Virus record (IMG/VR): IMGVR_UViG_3300045135_000252
Location: 9,627 to 73,626 of that record
Length of the DNA stretch: 64,000 bases
DNA from: a virus
Reading direction: 5' to 3' (one strand)
Part shown: positions 4,550 to 49,492 of the stretch, in pieces
Numbering within the stretch: the first letter of the stretch is position 1
Layout of the letters: the number at the start of each line of letters is the position of its first letter
Notes under the pieces: model-generated
The model's input: only the letters and a program-made list of their open reading frames with translations
Databases searched by the model: none
Told to the model about the DNA's origin: nothing
Translations under genes and position numbers: made by a program

Positions 4550-5644
4550 ATGGCATATAACAAATTATCCACTGCTAACCTTCCTGATCCTGTCATTGAT
4601 CCTGCGACTGGTAGTAGCCCTGGAGATTACTTTAATACTGTGTTGTATACGGGTGATGATGTTGATGGACGCAACATCACTGGCGTAGGCTTTGATCCTG
4701 ATTTTGTGTGGATTAAAAGCCGTAGTCTTGCAACAAGTCATTTACTAAACGATGTAATTCGTGGTGGTAACGCAACACTGTTTTCAGAAGCAACTTATGC
4801 TGAGACAGCAAACAACGGTGGTGGTTACCTAAGCGGCTTCGTTACCGATGGGTTTTCTGTTACTTCAGGATCATCTGGTGATAATGCTGTTAATAATACA
4901 GGTTCTACTTACGCATCTTGGAACTGGAAAGCCAATGGATCAGGCGTAAGCAACACTGATGGCGACATAACAAGCACAGTCAGCGCAAACACTGATGCGG
5001 GCTTTTCAATCACGCTCTACACTGGGGATGGCACTAATGGAACAAGAACTGTTGGTCACGGTCTATCTCAGAGTCCTGAGTTTGTCATAGTAAAAAATAG
5101 AGATGTAGTTCAAGACTGGATGGTTTGGACGCATGATTTGCCAGCTACTGAAAACTTACGTCTTAACACTACGGATGCTGCAAGTACCCCTTCCAATCGA
5201 ATTAATTCAGCAAGCTCAACGACTGTCGAACTCAACGCCGATTCTGGAACTAAAGTTAATTCTTTGGGCGATAATTTTGTCATGTACTGCTTCCACTCAG
5301 TCGAAGGCTTCAGCAAGATTGGTAGCTATGTCGGCAACGGTAGTACAGATGGCCCGTTTGTGTACACAGGGTTTAGACCTGCTTTCATTATGAGCAAGAG
5401 GACAGATAGCACTGGTGATTGGCATATGTATGATGTTAAACGTGATACATACAATTACGTTCATAATGCGATATGGGCAAACTACTCTAGTGCTGAGTAT
5501 GACTATGGAGCAACTCAGGTCTGGGATATTTTATCCAATGGATTTAAGGCTAGAACTTCTAGCGTAATTAATAACAGTTCGGGTGCAACCTACATCTACA
5601 TGGCATTTGCCGAACAACCCATGAAATTTAGTAATGCGAGGTAA
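4550..5644 (+). CDS. Tail fibre protein with one copy of the same repeated domain
   Basis: YFNTVLYTG, GFDPDFVWIKSR, SNTDGDITSTV, GFRPAF and YIYMAFAE are homologous to the repeats in the upstream gene. Confidence 0.8.
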   Translation: MAYNKLSTANLPDPVIDPATGSSPGDYFNTVLYTGDDVDGRNITGVGFDPDFVWIKSRSLATSHLLNDVIRGGNATLFSEATYAETANNGGGYLSGFVTDGFSVTSGSSGDNAVNNTGSTYASWNWKANGSGVSNTDGDITSTVSANTDAGFSITLYTGDGTNGTRTVGHGLSQSPEFVIVKNRDVVQDWMVWTHDLPATENLRLNTTDAASTPSNRINSASSTTVELNADSGTKVNSLGDNFVMYCFHSVEGFSKIGSYVGNGSTDGPFVYTGFRPAFIMSKRTDSTGDWHMYDVKRDTYNYVHNAIWANYSSAEYDYGATQVWDILSNGFKARTSSVINNSSGATYIYMAFAEQPMKFSNAR

Positions 5645-5650
5645 CAACTA

Positions 5651-26900: not shown

Positions 26901-27795
26901 CTTCTTCCCCGGTAATGATCCAGAAGCTAAGCGGATACGTAACAAAGCGTTCCTGCAGATGGTGGGCATCCACGGTTCAGCGCTGTTCTTTGCTGGTATC
27001 CACGGTATCCCGCTGTACGGCGCGGCGCAGTTGTTAGCTGACCTATTCTTCTTAGGCGACGATGAAGATGATTTCAACACGTTGATACGTAAACAGGTTG
27101 GTGAAACGTGGTACAAGGGCTTAGTCAATGAAATGACTGGGGTAGATATTGCTAGCCGTGTGCGTTTGACAGGCTTACTGCTACAAGAGAATAGGTATAA
27201 CACAGACCCTTCTGTTGAAGAGTTTTTTGGTCAGTACCTAGGTGGTCCAGCACTAAGTGTTGCTAAGAAGATGATACGTGGCGTGCAAGATTTACATGAA
27301 GGTGATGTACAGCGTGGTGTAGAGAACTTATTGCCATCCGCCGTAGCAAATGCGTATAAGTCAGCCTTTGGGCGCTACCAAGAACAAGGTGGTATATACA
27401 CCCGTCGTGGCGATCCTATCTACTCTGATATGACTGGCGGAGAACTCATAGCACAGGCACTTGGCTTCGCTCCTGCTGAGTATACGTTTAAACAAGAGCG
27501 TAACTTGCGTAATAAGCGGGTTGAGAAAGCTATCCTGACTGAACGTACCAAGCTAACTCGTAAGTATTACGTGGCGTTGCGGCTAGGGGACATCGACAAA
27601 ATACAAAGAGCGCGTCAGGAAATCTTAGATTTCAATGCTAAGCACAGAGATCCGGACATCATTATTGATGCGGAAGATATTAAGAAGTCTATTCAGCGTC
27701 ATAGAGAAACATCTCAGCGGATGTACGACGGTGTGACTATTAACCCTGCATTACGCAGAGCAATCGAACTAAGTAATCAGGAATACAACTACTAA
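20980..27795 (+). CDS. Giant internal (ejected) polyvalent protein with zincin-like HExxH domain
   Basis: 2271 aa; GMFNP...ILHEVTHA...EEFVAEAYSNPEF metallopeptidase-like segment; helical C-terminal region resembling large-polyvalent-protein domains. Confidence 0.75.
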   Translation: MADVRLPSGKIISNVPDGVSQAQLRELAIASGQFTEEDFVAQQPAPSQADQDAELAALRSRVLAKDPGLFDYLYDIPKGIARGVVGGAELAARGITSQIADEASFLDPLYGIEEGISDAERKQRAAQMRAGIERRVAPIDEFLAADASVEGSIPSTFAEAAGSIIPGLGLGAIPVAGLPTAGAYFYAQGRGEAAQRARQSGATEDQIAQSADLGGLVGLSEIIPIQRILKRFRRGVGDDFADEAEGRIKRALKAGRDEAIQEAAATVAQNAIAKGIYDPETDLLAGTQEALGYGAGVGGLTQFLLDMFAKRVQTPGQPAPTEGVQTDELGLDDAGGAAVSTPAPVGGAGVEAITPDATGVEPRGVDVPTGAVPDAGVGEGPVGDPLALAAELETATEAQVAAQQEYDNEIDELVNLGRTEEEAALELNTDPLKTNLDAATTRVATLQQQLQQAQAQTSEVASLEQAAAEQAAQQAPETAQPVGRTKTVTETSADGVTTTRTEEIPETTGLDTPINDIVEGKVVQKSAREILAEQQRVKQEQDKRRELLSDPKKLAEYAEDKGISVEEMQALLEQNTVDNLARELELEDVVNRPEFRELQTQEKEKASKIKFKDTTEAAPEPDAVGEQLQQNLWESYSSGQGALANDEVVTTARQIAQETGQEFTETEFKDFASKYRGTQARKRTVAQDFTKRLDEQRLQDTPKDIRDSIKKAREMMQSKGRLAVVDRDIGDTARDIGSNLGPEAETAFLNEAQRIADDNLRRYQEEKAAVEAQATPEGDLPPLPDLMDTENEFSIPEQAEFRDDALVRVGQNNRYPKGPLLEPFNAFRVYASKKNRAEDVIELVAFDIVEGSTEYRKVGKTGALAPAMPKLKERDEPADAISDQEKRFFKGLGHADVARAAESFMRARMSPDAIKLLDERIEFYRDRQRRAKAAAAAQASGKPSRDQKIQARKKALAKQLEAERTDTTEADLMEVATEIGASDADVRAAEAELLDNYFDIADAELTLDEALSDLGINPELSANAVTALEGNVHPQVIAELQAGNLKSALRYLTLTSSNPDVARAARVLADKLGDTRIRMEANLRNEAGKEVAGMFNPRSNTVSINTAMDIKPHTILHEVTHALTIAGLANKSSAFTKQLNNIYNDVKGRLGTAYGTQSLEEFVAEAYSNPEFRRELAGLTPKGEQISVLQKLKNTLRNFVRRLMGRPAVTEGTQLSEIDNLIEAILNPAPPSQDAEPFYLNSQRDGVMEMLKRMTASLRRAGPLNKERRQEYVDEALDAVTQDAPDTAARALYGFGDMLFVADMAKKLGMGEIGVKMQRVIELQRGEIQKRDDETAQEVKELANWMAKSGGKVEEAFNRVIYSPEYGATIFQVDPTKPRSAYVGKFDNNGNSLEEIWDAQRADWAILQAAGGDVQFNKLREFYKKQREELMNIIQGVMDDVFPGGDPASNRLRQTLYNKLLADASDLDVYFPLERQGSYKLVYNFVPGSEPKGSPPYAVEMFTTSRARDRARAELMNNPDVDKASIDVIDGESLTAHYNRTPPNSFIKDLLSAIENNPEISNNEATKEQVLQLFIDALPQTALAKSLRRRKNVVGYASDSLLALKSRGFDTGRQISKLKATARLRQLEADAVGFATPSLAQINATKATMPNATPRQIAEALNTTVDYLNNVDQIIAREGIWKRLIRPFRGERTQAQIEADIQRYLIDPIRRTKDELVMRAEFARMGARHKSIEKAVRFANQLAFMATIGFNPSSAAVNLSQIPLFVYPYLGADYGYGKTGTAFKRAHALLGAYKNDIERYYNVDENGNYTVIDSPDMSPAKRKVLEDLAPMVEEASARGLLNRSYLLDALGLEESGRSANVIDKATTLSAVMFNHAERYNRQVTLLATYQLELDRLQKENAQREGKAKLADVTIRNRAIKQAIMLTQRTNGGSVLETGPRYAQQNIGRIALMYKAYGLRMYNSMLDSAKELAENFFPGNDPEAKRIRNKAFLQMVGIHGSALFFAGIHGIPLYGAAQLLADLFFLGDDEDDFNTLIRKQVGETWYKGLVNEMTGVDIASRVRLTGLLLQENRYNTDPSVEEFFGQYLGGPALSVAKKMIRGVQDLHEGDVQRGVENLLPSAVANAYKSAFGRYQEQGGIYTRRGDPIYSDMTGGELIAQALGFAPAEYTFKQERNLRNKRVEKAILTERTKLTRKYYVALRLGDIDKIQRARQEILDFNAKHRDPDIIIDAEDIKKSIQRHRETSQRMYDGVTINPALRRAIELSNQEYNY

Positions 27796-27818
27796 AAAAG
27801 ACCCCGCACGAGGCGGGG
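27794..27818 (-). terminator. Rho-independent terminator at the convergence of the two transcription blocks
   Basis: The minus strand reads CCCCGC-CTCGT-GCGGGG-TCTTTTTT. Confidence 0.8.
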
Positions 27819-27886
27819 CACAGCATAGGGAGTCAACCCTTAGAGGTAACCACGAAAACAATTTGCAAAGTCGCAACTCATTTCGT
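27794..27886 (-). ncRNA. Candidate ~90-nt sRNA antisense to early-gene ribosome-binding sites
   Basis: 5' hairpin ACGAAA...TTTCGT, then GGTTACCTCTAAGGGTTGACTCCCTA, then a terminator, with an upstream promoter-like motif. Complementary to multiple RBS regions (see findings). Confidence 0.55.
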
Positions 27887-27892
27887 AGGTAA

Positions 27893-27922
27893 ACTGTATC
27901 CTAAAGTCGCCATACCCGTAAA
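27893..27922 (-). promoter_or_regulatory. Putative sigma70 promoter for the sRNA
   Basis: TTTACG-18 nt-TACAGT; the predicted +1 (~27886) coincides with the first base of the 5' hairpin. Confidence 0.45.
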
Positions 27923-28095
27923 CCCCTAACTCCTTCTTCGATAACGACTTTTGTCAAAATCTTGTATTTAAGCCTGTCAGTCACCGCTTTGATCTCATCT
28001 CGTGCTGACTTTGGGTCCAAGCAGGGTATGAAAAATGAGTAACCCCGCTTGAACTTTTTCCAGTTAATCTCGTAACTGACCTTCTCCACCTGCAT
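27901..28095 (-). CDS. Small conserved phage protein downstream of the primase
   Basis: INWKKF..G.SFFIPCLD...GLRVWR pattern. Confidence 0.7.
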   Translation of the reverse strand: MQVEKVSYEINWKKFKRGYSFFIPCLDPKSARDEIKAVTDRLKYKILTKVVIEEGVRGLRVWRL

Positions 28096-30916
28096 CTACG
28101 GTTTCCTCAACCTCAAGCATTGCGTCCACATCTAAGAACTCGCTGTTATCGCAGTCAAGTACCAAAGCCCTAGTAGCTGGGGATGAGATCTTCATGCCCT
28201 TAGACATACGCTTGTATGTGGTCTCTTTGAGAATCCCTTTCTTTGTAAGGTCTTTCAGGATTCCCTTGTAGTTCAAGCGGTATTTCACACAGTCTTCCTT
28301 GAACGCCTTTGCTGATATGTACATCAACTTAGTGTCAGGCTCGTACCGTATGAATAGATTACCTCTTGGCTCCATCAACGGTAGCGTTGGCATCTTAGAC
28401 CGTGAGTCCACTTCATCGTTGACCACAAGGATGTTCTGCAGGTGCCGGTTAATAAAGTCACCGATTACAGCTACCACATCATCCACAGGTGTGCGTACAT
28501 CTTCACGTAGTTCAGGGAGTAACTTCGCACCGCACCATTGGTAGATACGCATGACGTCCCAGTCGATAAGTCCTAGATTCCGTGCGATCAAACCGCCTGT
28601 AATGTTTGCGGCGATGATTGCAGACCAGAAGCGTTCTTTCTGTGTGATCTTAAACTCACGGTCTACTTTCTCTTGAATCTGACGGATAGCCGCCTTTACT
28701 TCTTCTAAGTTATTCACAAGATATTCAGCGTATATGTCGCCCGCATGCCCGTAGTTCTCAGGAAGCTCAATATCAAACTTATACTTGGAGGTTACGTCGT
28801 TAGCGATCTCTTCGCTGGTAGGGATTTTGTACTCGATGATCCGCATCATTTCTGCTTCTGGGCGGTTCTTTGCCGCCGCTAGAGCTTCGTAGAACGAGCT
28901 GTTTGCAGACGTAGTGACCAAAGTACACCAGTTGGTCAGGTTTTTACGCAGCTCGTTAGTGGACTGCTTCATGCGCTCTTTCCACTTACCCTGCGATACA
29001 CCGTAGGCTAGGTCTGATACTTCCTGCGGAGCGCACTCAGTCATCTCGTCTAGCGTTACCGATAGGTTGTTATGCACACCAAGGCGCATAAACTTAGCGT
29101 TCATGGTGTCAGCCTTGAGGCCAGTTAGGTTCTTTGGGTGCCCCCATACGCTGTTCTGCATGTACAGCACGGTAGACTTACCGTCACCGGAGCCTTCCGC
29201 GACCAGACTTACAAGCGCACCTTGCTGACCTGTGTATTTGAAAATCGGCGCACCGAAAGCACATAGTGTGGCAAACGCCTGTGGTTCAAGCCCTTTCCTG
29301 CCGTAGATGCTGAAGATTTCTTTCCACTTCTCGAATGACCCCGCCTTCTGTAAATGCTCTACAAATGTCTCTGTAGATGGCGATGGGGGCGTGTGGTACG
29401 TACCATCTGCAGTTATCTCTCTATCTCCAATGATAAATTTGCTGTCATTGTCAGCCCATCCAAACTGTAATCTCATTAGCTCTGCCTTCTTTTTTGTCTG
29501 CATTTCACGTACAGATGCAGTGATGTACCAACTCAGTAACTCACTTTTTTTACTAGCGCCACAAAGCACACCGTGCTCTGCTAATAGCTTTCGTACTTCT
29601 CTTGGCTCTGTTAGCTGTGAGTTAGGGATAATAAATTCAAGAACCCCATCGTGCGGAGTGTGCAGTTTAAACACCGCTACGTCCTTCTTGATTGGGTCTT
29701 TCATACGTTTCAACACGTATAGATCGTGCTCGTATACCAGCACTGGCTCTTCTTCAGCATTAGCAGAGTCGTACCAGATACCACCTGTTTTGCCACGGAA
29801 GAACGGAAACGGATACTCAGGGATTTTGTACTTCTCTTCAACACCGTCTTCTTCGATGCTTATGATATTGTCCATCTCACTGGCTTTTTCTACCTCACGG
29901 CCAAGCACGATGGGGCTTTTAATCTTGCCTTTGAACGGACAACCATCACACCCGCCGGGGTTATTTTCCTCGAACTTCTCGCAAGTATGTGGCCCAAGTA
30001 TATGTTTTATCTTGTGTTCTACTTCGCCCGGGTCATAGTCTGGGTGGTCTGAAGATAGCTTGTGTATGGCTTTGTCCTTATCTGTACAGAACTTTGCGAC
30101 AGATAAAGCATTGAACCATCTAGGCTCCACTAAGGTTTCACGGTCTTCATAGCAAGATAGAAGCTGTTGACAGCCATCACCGTTGCCACTGCGGATCATG
30201 ATCTTCTTAAAGCTATTAGTCGTAGCGTCAGCAAACTGCTGTCCTAACGCCGTTAACTCACGTTTTGGCGCGGTCTCAACTTTATCCTCTACACCAAGTA
30301 TGTCCCGTAACTCATTGAAATCTATAGGGTCAGCTTCCTGAACTACAGATACTGGCTTAGCTGGATCGTCTTTAAAGTTGAGTGTGCCCGGAACTCTAAG
30401 TACACGTGCAACCTCAAACACCGCAGGGTCTACATATAGCTCATGCGTAAAGCACAGCTCACGTAGGCGGTGTGCGACTGGCTCCCACTGTTCACGGGTT
30501 ACTTCCTCAGTCAGTGCCCAGTACACGTGGATACCACGGCCAGAGTTGACGAGTATAGGTTCAGGCAGTCCTACCAGTTCGCAGAAAGCATCTAGTGCTT
30601 CCTTACCACTGTCTTGATCTGCGTAACCATCAGGGCGTCCTGTCTTTTCGTTGACCTCTGCCTTCGTGGGGCCACAGTCTATGTCAAGCCAAAAGGCTTT
30701 GAGCGACTGTACGTTGTCTTTCTTTCTGTCTGCATCGGTTTGGAATTTAGCCACCGCGAAGAAAGCATTGCGTTTATCAGCTACGAACTGCTCTGCTAGC
30801 TCGTCTAGTTCCTCACGGGTTTGTACAAGTTTCTGTACAATGCTCCTCCCTTTGATACCGACAGCGCAGAACCATCCATCTTTCGGCTGTACTGCGTCTA
30901 ATAGGTCGAATGTCAT
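28064..30916 (-). CDS. Primase-helicase (AEP/RepB-like primase plus DUF927-type helicase)
   Basis: FWLDIDCG, NSGRGIHVYW and RVLRVPGTLN primase motifs; Cys cluster; FGW; Walker A GSGDGKST and Walker B TLDEMT. Confidence 0.85.
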   Translation of the reverse strand: MTFDLLDAVQPKDGWFCAVGIKGRSIVQKLVQTREELDELAEQFVADKRNAFFAVAKFQTDADRKKDNVQSLKAFWLDIDCGPTKAEVNEKTGRPDGYADQDSGKEALDAFCELVGLPEPILVNSGRGIHVYWALTEEVTREQWEPVAHRLRELCFTHELYVDPAVFEVARVLRVPGTLNFKDDPAKPVSVVQEADPIDFNELRDILGVEDKVETAPKRELTALGQQFADATTNSFKKIMIRSGNGDGCQQLLSCYEDRETLVEPRWFNALSVAKFCTDKDKAIHKLSSDHPDYDPGEVEHKIKHILGPHTCEKFEENNPGGCDGCPFKGKIKSPIVLGREVEKASEMDNIISIEEDGVEEKYKIPEYPFPFFRGKTGGIWYDSANAEEEPVLVYEHDLYVLKRMKDPIKKDVAVFKLHTPHDGVLEFIIPNSQLTEPREVRKLLAEHGVLCGASKKSELLSWYITASVREMQTKKKAELMRLQFGWADNDSKFIIGDREITADGTYHTPPSPSTETFVEHLQKAGSFEKWKEIFSIYGRKGLEPQAFATLCAFGAPIFKYTGQQGALVSLVAEGSGDGKSTVLYMQNSVWGHPKNLTGLKADTMNAKFMRLGVHNNLSVTLDEMTECAPQEVSDLAYGVSQGKWKERMKQSTNELRKNLTNWCTLVTTSANSSFYEALAAAKNRPEAEMMRIIEYKIPTSEEIANDVTSKYKFDIELPENYGHAGDIYAEYLVNNLEEVKAAIRQIQEKVDREFKITQKERFWSAIIAANITGGLIARNLGLIDWDVMRIYQWCGAKLLPELREDVRTPVDDVVAVIGDFINRHLQNILVVNDEVDSRSKMPTLPLMEPRGNLFIRYEPDTKLMYISAKAFKEDCVKYRLNYKGILKDLTKKGILKETTYKRMSKGMKISSPATRALVLDCDNSEFLDVDAMLEVEETVDAGGEGQLRD

Positions 30917-30939
30917 CCCTAAATCCTTGCTGTGTAATT

Positions 30940-32091: not shown

Positions 32092-32490
32092 TTATTTAGA
32101 AGTTGGTTTACGGACTTGCACGGTATATTTGCGGTCGGCTTGAAGCCCTGCTGGTAATACATCAGGGTTTTCCTCAAGGAATTGCTTCATGTTGCCGTTG
32201 TGGATTCTCTGCTCAAGCAGATGAGGAGCGTCATGTTCCTTAATTAGCTTGTACATAGCCTCCCAGTCACTCGTCCAATACCGTGACGTTATACGACGAG
32301 TGACCGTGCCTTCTGGGGTTTTGAAACCGTCTTGGCCGTTTTCCTCACATATTTCTAGTAAGGCTTGGCCTACGGAATCTAGTTGCTCTTTAAGAGCAGA
32401 CATTTCTTCTTTGTGCTGGTGTTCTTTTTCGCGTATTGCATCACGAATTTTAAGATACACGGGCACAAGTTTATCGGCTGGTGTTGCCAT
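32092..32490 (-). CDS. Conserved replication-module protein
   Basis: YLKIRD coiled coil, T..GTV.R, YW.SDW, LLEQRI...M.QFLEENPD..P.GL; has its own promoter and RBS. Confidence 0.75.
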   Translation of the reverse strand: MATPADKLVPVYLKIRDAIREKEHQHKEEMSALKEQLDSVGQALLEICEENGQDGFKTPEGTVTRRITSRYWTSDWEAMYKLIKEHDAPHLLEQRIHNGNMKQFLEENPDVLPAGLQADRKYTVQVRKPTSK

Positions 32491-32523
32491 AGTTAGTACC
32501 TCTTTTGGTTGACTCCATTAACA

Positions 32524-32551
32524 ACTATAGTGTTGTTTTTGACTTTGTCAA
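32524..32551 (-). promoter_or_regulatory. Putative sigma70 promoter of the primase operon
   Basis: TTGACA-16 nt-TATAGT. Confidence 0.6.
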
Positions 32552-36350: not shown

Positions 36351-36591
36351 TTGAGTTACCTCTCTTTTTAGTCCATTTAGTTATTTCCTCCTCAAGGTGT
36401 CTATCTACGATGTAGCCCTTAAACGGAGGATTCAGTAGGCTTTCGCCCCTTTGTCTATACGATCTGGCCTTGGCCTCGTCGTCTAGCATCTCGTATTCCT
36501 CTGCGAGGAATAAGTACCACTTTGCGGCACTTTCGATTGTGATCCCCATGCTTTCCATAAGGTCACGCTCAACTGTTGGTAGCTTTCCCAT
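36337..36591 (-). CDS. Hypothetical protein
   Basis: 84-aa ORF in the operon, overlapping its neighbours. Confidence 0.55.
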   Translation of the reverse strand: MGKLPTVERDLMESMGITIESAAKWYLFLAEEYEMLDDEAKARSYRQRGESLLNPPFKGYIVDRHLEEEITKWTKKRGNSNEND

Positions 36592-39337: not shown

Positions 39338-39617
39338 AAGTAATTACCTCTAATACTTCAACGATATTATCTTCGTTTATAACTCTGGTTATGCCGCCCG
39401 CACTCCGTATGTCTCGCATCTCTTTTTCTTGTAGTGCAGTTGGCTTATTGCTACCTGCCTTGCACTCAATGCCGATGAAGACACCGTTGCAACAACAGAT
39501 AATGTCAGGCACACCGCTACGTCCATACCCGTGCGTAGCAGGGAAGAAGTAGTACACGCCATGTTCCTTGAGAACCTTAACGATCTTGTCTTTTACTTTC
39601 TTTTCAGGTGTAGCCAT
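39288..39617 (-). CDS. VRR-NUC nuclease / Holliday junction resolvase-like
   Basis: TPEKKVK, G.GRSGVPDII, FIGIECKA and PTALQ......I..AGG motifs. Confidence 0.9.
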   Translation of the reverse strand: MATPEKKVKDKIVKVLKEHGVYYFFPATHGYGRSGVPDIICCCNGVFIGIECKAGSNKPTALQEKEMRDIRSAGGITRVINEDNIVEVLEVITYAQEHGDSHGSYGEPS

Positions 39618-41634: not shown

Positions 41635-41666
41635 TGGTAGTTACCTCTATTTAGTTATAAGTCTGA

Positions 41667-41870
41667 CTAACAAATGTTAGTCTCATCGTTTTGGATTATT
41701 TTATGTCTGACCGCAATGCGATCCCCTAGGTCAACGACCTCTGCGCGTCCTTCGCCCACTTCAACAATGGAGTGAACAGCCCGACGCAATCTGCTTTTTG
41801 TTTTTACTAAAGCAGCTATAAACATGACGTTTGCCGATAGCGACAACGACAGTATGATTGCCATCTCCAT
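41667..41870 (-). CDS. Small membrane-anchored protein
   Basis: N-terminal hydrophobic helix; its stop codon lies inside a palindrome copy. Confidence 0.6.
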   Translation of the reverse strand: MEMAIILSLSLSANVMFIAALVKTKSRLRRAVHSIVEVGEGRAEVVDLGDRIAVRHKIIQNDETNIC

Positions 41871-44506: not shown

Positions 44507-44602
44507 TTTAGTTACCTCTAATGTAATAGTTGTTAATGGTCTGGCTAACAAATGTTAGTGCGACCCCACTAGCGTATGTGTTCATTCCGCGCCAGTGTGT
44601 AT

Positions 44603-46130: not shown

Positions 46131-46275
46131 CGTTTGACTCCTCTATTTGTATGGCAACAAACCCATGAAAGTCGTATCCGTCTTCCGTGGCTTCAAAGAC
46201 AAGAATCCAGTCCTTATCGCTGTATTTCTTACATACAGCGGATATCTCATCTGCCCACTTGTCTACTTCGCTCAT
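46123..46275 (-). CDS. 50-aa acidic protein (not in ORF track)
   Basis: MSEVDKWADEISAVCKKYSDKDWILVFEATEDGYDFHGFVAIQIEESNDG; fills a gap in the operon. Confidence 0.55.
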   Translation of the reverse strand: MSEVDKWADEISAVCKKYSDKDWILVFEATEDGYDFHGFVAIQIEESNDG

Positions 46276-46528: not shown

Positions 46529-46765
46529 TTAGTTGCTCCTCTTATCGCTTCCGTCTGCATTGAAACCATGATGCTTGCGTATTGCTTGAGTCATCGGGTT
46601 GGTACTGCGGTAGCAGGTATAAGAGCCACGCTGTGGTGGGCGTTCAGTATGCAACTGCATCTGCATGAAGATGTACTGCGCCATCAGGCGTGAGTGTTCG
46701 TTGCCATTCTTAACGTGCCATGCTCGCTGGCGGAGCAGACGTTGTGCATCACGTGATAAGGACAT
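46529..46765 (-). CDS. Hypothetical early protein
   Basis: First gene after the promoter at 46860; GAGGT RBS. Confidence 0.6.
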   Translation of the reverse strand: MSLSRDAQRLLRQRAWHVKNGNEHSRLMAQYIFMQMQLHTERPPQRGSYTCYRSTNPMTQAIRKHHGFNADGSDKRSN

Positions 46766-46859
46766 AGTAGTTACCTCGTATTGTTGTGTTTTTGCATACC
46801 GACTAACAAATGTTAGTCAGATGGGGTTTGAGTATGTACGCGCCTCGCCCCATTTATAT

Positions 46860-48439: not shown

Positions 48440-48452
48440 AGTGTTGACTCCT

Positions 48453-49075: not shown

Positions 49076-49492
49076 GAGTAGTTACCTCTGTTATGGAATA
49101 CCGAAGCGGGATTGCTTCGATGGGTTTATAGTCTCATATTGTGGTACAAATATCAGAGTTAGAACCATATAAGGGGGTAGGGCTAACAAATGTTAGTCAG
49201 ACCTATGCGACACCCCCCACCCCCCTAGCTCACAGTTAGTTACATACATCGTCTATATGTATAATAATATGCACATTAGATCACCAATTTTGACAAAGCC
49301 TTCCCCCTCTTTAGACACTGTCTAAAAAAGACCCCCACCCCCTTGTATTCTGCGCCCGGTTGGCACGCACTCCGTTTATAGAAGTACCCCCCTACCTAAA
49401 AAATTAGAGTCCCGTTTCCTTGATATATTTGTGTTTGTTGCAAATACTCTGTTAGGATCACGCCAACTGAGGCCACAAACCGCCGTGCAGAC

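Follow-up and report, generated by a model that had tools for sequence, protein, structure and literature searches.

A candidate small RNA at the 3' end of a phage replication operon co-varies with the leader of its own operon

The stretch of DNA considered here, hereafter the window, is 64 kb long and corresponds to bases 9627-73626 of the viral record IMGVR_UViG_3300045135_000252, which has 73,626 bp and is rated complete. The plus strand up to 27795 is occupied by late genes, including terminase, portal, virion proteins and a DarB-like protein of 2271 amino acids (aa), and the minus strand from about 49075 down to 27901 by a replication arm encoding a DUF927 primase/helicase, a helicase, DNA polymerase I and an AAA ATPase. 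The convergent arms leave a gap of 105 bp between them (27796-27900), and the element described here is a candidate small RNA (sRNA) read from this gap on the minus strand, at the end of a five-gene replication operon. Its seed sequence was found to complement the ribosome-binding site (RBS) in the leader of the gene that opens this operon, and to change together with that leader across uncultured relatives, which points to a conserved RNA regulator. The element in the window is composed as follows, with lengths in nucleotides (nt) and ORF standing for open reading frame.

27794-27886, minus strand: predicted sRNA of about 90 nt, placed by promoter and terminator positions and by the fold, both ends being predicted
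27917-27922, minus strand: -35-like hexamer TTTACG, matching TTGACA at 4/6 positions, within the last codons of the 64-aa ORF
27893-27898, minus strand: -10-like hexamer TACAGT, beginning 2 nt past the stop codon of that ORF
27852-27886, minus strand: 5' hairpin with stem ACGAAA (27886-27881)/TTTCGT (27857-27852) and a variable interior
27826-27851, minus strand: 26-nt seed block GGTTACCTCTAAGGGTTGACTCCCTA, between the 5' hairpin and the terminator
27840-27851, minus strand: seed 1, GGTTACCTCTAA, antisense to the extended early RBS TTAGAGGTAAC and unpaired in the predicted fold
27829-27838, minus strand: seed 2, GGTTGACTCC, forming the loop and 3' arm of a small hairpin at 27827-27840
27794-27819, minus strand: intrinsic terminator with a 7-bp stem (6 G-C pairs), a 5-nt loop, then C and six U

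The two promoter-like hexamers straddle the TAG stop codon of the 64-aa ORF (27903-27901) and are separated by a spacer of 18 nt; in the window GATACA, two bases upstream of TACAGT, offers an alternative -10. The sRNA sequence doubles as the 3' end of the operon mRNA, the terminator (stem-loop 27819-27801, six-T run 27799-27794) being common to both, and since a T-run lies 3' of the stem only on the minus strand, this terminator is expected to serve the replication operon. The RNA of 93 nt folds with -30.9 kcal/mol (z = -3.1). A sequence-only reading of this DNA had described a promoter-like pair, a hairpin, two seeds and a terminator in the gap, and all of them lie where it had placed them. 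The U-run overlaps by two bases the stop codon (27793-27795) of the convergent DarB-like gene; no T-run follows the hairpin when it is read on the plus strand, and late transcripts may read through and yield an RNA antisense to the sRNA.

A coding role was rejected for both strands. The gap holds no plus-strand ORF of at least 20 aa and no conserved one, in agreement with the earlier proposal of an RNA. No ATG, GTG or TTG stands at Shine-Dalgarno (SD) spacing past the plus-strand SD-like motifs, and the hairpin interior carries indels in relatives and a stop codon in the relative L002. On the minus strand, an ORF of 13 codons (ATG 27881, TAA 27842-27840) running from the 5' hairpin into seed 1 has no SD, is absent or in a different frame in L002, L005 and L006, and is probably not coding. 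No ORF on either strand is conserved at the element in the close clade, that is, in the relatives with 72-90% primase identity.

The relatives (loci L002-L175) were collected by primase, DNA-polymerase and primase-alignment searches of viral contigs, the alignment scan counting 568 primase relatives, of which 80 were fetched. The 26-nt seed block hardly varies within the close clade, whereas the hairpin interior, through substitutions and indels, and the flanking coding DNA diverge. L002, L003, L005 and L006 all retain the 5' stem, L005 showing a compensatory exchange of one pair (A-U to U-A). Seed 2 is invariant in this clade; seed 1 is nearly so, and the variant GATTACC found in L005 matches the leader of the same locus, GAGGTAAT.

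The target in the window lies at the other end of the operon, in the short leader before its first gene. The mRNA is about 4.7 kb long and runs from a Gam-like gene through the primase to the 64-aa ORF; the leader is about 1.6 kb upstream of the primase start.

32524-32551, minus strand: operon promoter TTGACA-16-TATAGT, matching 11/12 consensus positions
32497-32516, minus strand: leader target GGAGTCAACC-aaa-AGAGGTA, containing the SD of gene 32490
32092-32490, minus strand: first operon gene, 132-aa DUF7307 (Pam3 gp33-like)/Mu Gam-like protein
28064-30916, minus strand: primase/helicase (DUF927), the marker gene for collecting relatives
27901-28095, minus strand: 64-aa ORF, the last operon gene, without a family match; its 3' end contains the -35-like hexamer

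The two leader motifs, GGAGTCAACC at 32516-32507 and AGAGGTA at 32503-32497, are separated by 3 nt, as are the corresponding seeds in the RNA, so that the claim of both seeds occurring at equal spacing in this leader was upheld. Both seeds can pair with the leader, the two helices being separated by a 3x3 internal loop, and in cofolding, which allows intramolecular structure, this leader shows the best gain of 95 start regions (-20.3 kcal/mol), the 5' hairpin and the terminator staying intact. The predicted mRNA start, at about 32517-32516, coincides with the first base of the seed-2 target; from this start, pairing would cover 17 of the approximately 27 leader bases, SD included. The product of gene 32490 scores 27.0 bits against PF23984, exactly at the cutoff, and 20.4 bits against Phage_Mu_Gam, under the cutoff. 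The start region of the primase carries CACAGCA (30932-30938), which complements a conserved UGCUGUG beside the terminator (27819-27825, minus strand), and it ranks second of the 95 start regions in cofolding (-18.2 kcal/mol).

The comparison across relatives carries most of the argument. In total 175 sequences were searched (174 fetched loci and the early arm of the window), and homologues of both genes of the comparison, the 64-aa ORF among them, were found in 115, minus-strand matches being discarded. Requiring both genes on one strand and applying position filters left 107 loci, 99 of them with a usable RNA body (terminator boundary set by hand in nine), which reduce to 82 unique leader/RNA pairs. 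In distant relatives, a different sequence lies between the stop of the 64-aa ORF homologue and the terminator, and it again complements the RBS of the orthologous leader. Over nine clades the summed longest cognate complement was 71, against 53.9 +/- 3.6 for permuted partners (P = 2e-5); an energy test on the same clades gave P = 0.002, and the cognate leader was the unique best partner in 5/9. Of the 82 unique pairs, 48 have a complement of at least 8 nt, and in 34 it extends to 10 nt or more. All 48 of the complements of at least 8 nt overlap an SD-like purine motif of the leader within 26 nt upstream of the start codon, and 43 of them begin 10-14 nt before it, the other five being the distal site of the window clade (-25/-26) and L136 (-17).

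In its commonest form in the family, the RNA carries the hairpin GGAAG-UUUGCUC-CUUCC, whose loop and 3' arm mirror ...GAAGGAGCAAAC before ATG. It is the bases 3' of the SD core that change together: where the leader continues GGAGC with AAC, AAAC, AAAAC, TAA, GAC, GATTC or GAA, the RNA has GTT, GTTT, GTTTT, TTA, GTC, GAATC or TTC, respectively, followed by GCTCC. The matched prefix 3' of the core, measured in 42 pairs representing 26 distinct types, totals 81, in comparison with 30 +/- 7.6 expected, and none of 100,000 permutations reached this value. On a primase phylogeny made by FastTree, to which long-branch warnings apply, one clade holds three distinct compensated extensions (L009, L096 and L097), another holds compensated CAA(C/T), CAAAC and CAAAAC forms, and the GGAGCTAA type occurs in three separate places. 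As a control, the primase start region gave no cognate signal across the same pairs (5.45 vs 5.10, with at least 8 nt in 3/82, terminator-adjoining bases left out). The sequence-only reading had expected the seeds to co-vary in relatives with the early RBS motif of each genome; this was found for the leader of the own operon, but not for the early regulon as a whole.

Seed 2 of the window, GGTTGACTCC, is the counterpart of the GGTTGCTCC of the wider family and corresponds to its anti-SD hairpin. In the window clade the leader motif for seed 2 stands 26 nt before ATG, a second SD, AGAGGTA, lies between them, and the RNA of this clade carries TACCTCT, which matches that second SD at equal spacing. 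A terminator-like hairpin was found by script at most 230 nt past the last stop codon in 98/107 loci. In eight of the 107 (L092, L083, L109, L135, L143, L146, L147 and L154) no terminator-like hairpin lies within 230 nt past the 64-aa ORF homologue, and in the downstream sequence printed for these eight there is no evident CU-rich element; judged from these sequences, the element is not universal in the wider family. The L030 RNA (UGCUUUUCCUUG) lacks a leader match; it is complementary over 11 nt to the RBS of another early gene, AAGGAAAAGCA before an ATG at about 799 (L030:780-810); the target may have shifted in some clades.

A hexamer of the form TAnnnT with at least 4/6 matches starts 0-4 nt past the stop codon in 49/85 unique junctions, and 28 of these have at least 5/6, the background being 4.3% for random positions and 3.5% for the stops of 2505 other ORFs. 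The commonest form is TATACT. This -10 position is non-coding and is kept across the family; as a conserved -10-like hexamer it suggests, by good though indirect evidence, that a separate small RNA is made.

In the window genome, the complementarity extends to further early genes. On the minus strand of the early block, 13 sense matches of at least 8 nt to the seeds were found, and nine of them lie directly before a start codon: 49081, 48443, 46770, 46134, 44511, 41640, 39344, 36355 and 32507. Eight of these, all except the operon leader, are given below.

49081-49089, minus strand: AGAGGTAAC, RBS of gene 49075, which opens the early arm
48443-48451, minus strand: GGAGTCAAC, RBS of gene 48439, of seed-2 type
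46770-46777, minus strand: GAGGTAAC, RBS of a small gene starting at 46765
46134-46141, minus strand: GGAGTCAA, RBS of gene 46130, of seed-2 type
44511-44521, minus strand: TTAGAGGTAAC, RBS of the AAA ATPase gene (start 44506), the longest seed-1 match with 11 nt
41640-41649, minus strand: TAGAGGTAAC, RBS of gene 41634
39344-39353, minus strand: TTAGAGGTAA, RBS of gene 39337
36355-36363, minus strand: AGAGGTAAC, RBS of gene 36350

The seed matches listed earlier for this genome all exist, and so does the one late exception, noted for gene 5651: among late start regions only 5638-5645 (GAGGTAAC) has a match of at least 8 nt, the motif being missing in 61/62 late cases. Duplex energies on start regions were compared with those of 300 shuffled seeds in which the CCTC and CTCC cores were held fixed. 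For the 33 early start regions the mean was -16.6 kcal/mol, against -13.3 +/- 0.8 for the shuffled seeds, and none of the 300 reached the observed value, whereas for the 62 late start regions the mean was -13.1 and 240/300 shuffles were equal or better. Complementarity past the SD core, as had been claimed, is thus specific to early genes. Early and late duplex energies differ (Mann-Whitney p = 6.7e-6), as do the cofolding means over the 95 start regions (early -8.8, late -5.9, p = 2.4e-4). The SD flavours differ as well, early sites having the form (A)GAGGTAAC or GGAGTCAAC and late sites being mostly AAGGAG or AGGAG. Taken with the match counts, these shuffle and early/late results indicate that early genes carry an extended RBS without counterpart in late genes, and that the RNA mirrors it.

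Three promoters on the early strand match 11/12 consensus positions (32551-32524, 46888-46860 and 44631-44603). They are of sigma-70 type, two with TG before the -10, and each heads a first cistron with an RNA match of at least 8 nt (32490, 46765 and 44506). Between promoter and common RBS, the leaders of 46765, 44506, 41634 and 49075 also contain the palindrome ACTAACATTTGTTAG (minus-strand sites 46800-46815, 44560-44580, 41660-41682 and 49180-49200, with spacers that are not conserved), which could be a protein operator or a hairpin of the 5' untranslated region (UTR).

This breadth was compared between genomes with automatically called start regions. Matches of at least 8 nt to the own RNA occur in 10/41 start regions of the window, one of these ten not being at an SD, and in 10/36 of L018; RNAs from foreign clades have 0-3 matches on the window genome and 0-2 on L018. 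In the other clades no excess over foreign-RNA controls was seen, with little besides the leader. The pattern behind the multi-target anti-RBS action that had been put forward is confined to the window clade.

The architecture of the element, its conservation, its complementarity past the SD core and its co-variation with the leader are observed in these genomes, and together they suggest the following mechanism. An RNA of about 90 nt that ends the replication operon is probably transcribed from its own weak promoter across the stop codon of the last ORF, and the identical sequence would also be present on the operon mRNA as a 3' tail, by way of the common terminator. The exposed CU-rich seeds would pair with the 5' leader of the first gene and cover the SD; masking of the SD would block the loading of ribosomes and place the operon under negative feedback. 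We assign a probability of about 0.7 to this full mechanism, in which the element is a conserved non-coding regulator and its partner the leader of its own operon. Transcription of the RNA, its pairing in vivo, the repression and its timing are all steps that we infer from sequence. Given that the co-varying partner is the leader of the own operon and not the whole early regulon, feedback on the primase operon is suggested as the ancestral function.

In the window clade, the leader would have acquired a second, start-proximal SD (AGAGGTA) and the RNA a matching second seed. This acquired seed fits the extended RBS AGAGGTAAC in eight further early genes, among them the first cistrons that follow the other two strong early promoters, and the RNA may in this way lower a large part of early translation and leave late genes, with their AAGGAG-type sites, unaffected. 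Such a multi-target early shut-off is a plausible extension specific to the window clade, for which the chances appear even at best. Its strongest form, in which the self-feedback RNA became a sequence-addressed master switch whose two seeds read the address AGAGGTAAC or GGAGTCAAC on first cistrons, is put forward tentatively, the odds being rather against it. The early-to-late switch proposed earlier is likewise something that we infer.

Several points weigh against the feedback mechanism or its extension. An anti-SD sequence will pair with any SD, a motif common to the early start regions makes them non-independent observations, and gene starts were partly curated by hand. The contiguous complement is shorter than 8 nt in 34/82 unique pairs; the clades of L027, L048 and L030, and those of L055, L098 and L165 type, show little past the SD core, and in the nine-clade test L027, L048 and L030 showed nothing past it. 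Relatedness among the loci inflates the permutation statistics, and 8 nt is reached by 20% of the non-cognate pairs. The 74 positions flanking the paired runs held 8 G-U, 21 A-C and 45 other mismatches; the flanks being fixed by the RNA hairpin stem and by A/T-rich leaders, these wobble counts give no strand-specific support for pairing between RNAs. The promoter of the window is weak, with 8/12 consensus positions, under the scan threshold of 9/12, and its -35 lies within conserved coding DNA, where its conservation is confounded by constraint on the C-terminus of the ORF. Finally, only one clade has the multi-target pattern, which might be due to a common strong RBS or to a protein site.

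One alternative involves no RNA pairing. Sequences that encode complementary RNAs are inverted repeats in DNA, and the leader motif with its mirror copy 4.7 kb away could be a pair of protein-binding or recombination sites bracketing the primase module. Co-variation alone separates neither view from the other, and the wobble counts do not help RNA pairing. This explanation is nevertheless very improbable in view of position: all 48 of the longer complements overlap an SD-like motif, in the window just past the predicted mRNA start, and the other copy is always found between the -10-like hexamer and the terminator, often in a hairpin loop. Moreover, the repeats measure only 8-12 bp, and in the window clade the motifs recur at many start regions at SD spacing. 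Even less can be said for chance, that is, for a generic CU-rich stretch before a terminator which happens to resemble an anti-SD. CU-rich runs of this kind are short and common, and some clades have core matches only; set against the 0/300 shuffles, the 0/100,000 permutations, the P value of 2e-5 and a seed block that stays nearly invariant amid diverging flanks, this account appears close to negligible.

Two further explanations keep the RNA pairing and differ from the feedback mechanism or its extension in the molecule or in the targets. A separate sRNA may not exist, and the 3' tail of the 4.7-kb operon mRNA could pair with its own 5' leader, by folding back or between mRNA copies, controlling translation or stability in the manner of icaR-type 5'-3' UTR pairing. 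The element does share the operon terminator and is on the same transcript as its best target, the co-variation fits pairing in cis as well as in trans, and the promoter is weak in the window genome. Retention of a -10-like hexamer at a fixed offset in non-coding sequence (49/85 vs about 4%) is not expected of a pure 3' tail, and in the window clade seed 1 is matched over a longer run outside its operon (11 nt at 44511) than in its own leader (7 nt), which makes a cis-only element improbable. The other explanation accepts the RNA as real and restricts its function to a sole target, its own operon leader. The other eight early matches in the window clade would then be a by-product: seed 1 would have been copied from, or have converged on, a strong RBS which early genes have in common for translation efficiency or as a protein operator. 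Co-variation found only for the operon leader and not at the primase start region, the few extra matches above foreign-RNA level in other clades, and the palindrome shared by early leaders, suggestive of cassette-like regulatory units, all speak for it. It is weakened by the extended RBS motif itself: the bases TAAC, on the 3' side of the SD core, do not follow the 3' end of 16S rRNA, yet are conserved next to spacers that vary. The absence of the motif from late genes in 61/62 cases, and a seed that does better on early start regions than all core-preserving shuffles, point in the same direction, and we consider a sole target unlikely, though the most serious of the alternatives.

Should feedback by the sRNA on its own operon be correct, its value lies firstly in the clean comparative signal, in which 82 distinct leader/RNA pairs from uncultured relatives provide many natural compensatory variants of a short RNA-RNA duplex. 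They constitute a natural set of orthogonal small-RNA/leader pairs, whose interaction can be tested without culturing the host. The window clade suggests, in addition, a route by which a feedback RNA with one target may come to regulate several: it gains a second seed while targets acquire the matching address. If the master switch is true, the accumulating RNA would shut off early translation genome-wide and late AAGGAG-type sites would escape; the lineage-private, fast-evolving seed/leader pairs would then act as orthogonal locks, each phage keeping control over its own replication module in co-infection. No close cultured relative of this phage was matched by blastn among phage records, and the nearest cultured phages are remote, with identities by tblastn of the DNA polymerase of 37% for Rhizobium phage RHph_TM3_14A and 34% for Pseudomonas phage KPP25.

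With respect to known RNAs, Rfam 15 gave no gathering-level match in the window nor in eight clade representatives (126,313 bases), and no tRNAs were found in the known-RNA check. A full-text literature search returned phage sRNAs acting on host genes or encoded in prophages, and no 3'-end autoregulatory phage sRNA; RNA regulators of their own translation from lytic or uncultured phages are barely documented. The family suhB/MmgR (RF00519) reached 23.2 bits over the full model length on the minus strand at 27786-27854 (E = 0.007-0.011; gathering threshold 41), and SorX (RF02784) 15.9 bits against a threshold of 46.6. MmgR and SorX, which are alphaproteobacterial sRNAs, resemble the element in having a small hairpin, a single-stranded CU-rich stretch (...CUCCCUA...) and then a terminator; their targets and genomic setting are unrelated, and the element is not a member of either family.

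Among phage RNAs, the c4 antisense RNA of phages P1 and P7 is the closest in design: about 80-90 nt long, it exposes two seeds which pair with two sites at matching spacing on an mRNA of its own operon and cover an RBS. This is a lysogeny-immunity operon, in which c4 precedes its targets, and the RNA is processed from the operon transcript. The element shares with it the phage origin, the two seeds, the matched spacing and the covered RBS; it differs in lying at the 3' end of a replication operon, and the C4 family (RF01695) had no match up to E = 10 in 27650-28050.

Bacterial 3'-end RNAs offer the remaining parallels. MicX-type 3'-end sRNAs are described as made from a promoter internal to an ORF (PMC9438474); MicX is bacterial and acts on other genes. 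The element may resemble them in its start, the predicted weak promoter lying inside or at the end of the upstream ORF, and it has a terminator in common with the mRNA. In Staphylococcus aureus, an anti-SD in the 3' UTR of the icaR mRNA is described as pairing with the SD of the same transcript and controlling its translation (PMC3868564). By sequence, the element too is a 3' UTR anti-SD motif that complements the SD of the same transcript; the bacterial mRNA has a single gene, whereas here the partners are about 4.6-4.7 kb apart on a five-gene phage operon and there is an apparent promoter of its own. The nearest counterparts in logic are OppZ and CarZ of Vibrio cholerae, presented as sRNAs from operon 3' UTRs that are released from the mRNA by RNase E cleavage and inhibit translation within their own operon, creating negative feedback (PMC7398697). 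Like them, the element closes an operon at its 3' end, with one terminator for both, and, on computational grounds, it complements and co-varies with a start region of that operon. It departs from the OppZ and CarZ described there in being phage-encoded, in having the leader of the first cistron as its target, in a conserved -10-like hexamer that suggests a promoter of its own and, in the window clade, in a second seed that fits other operons.

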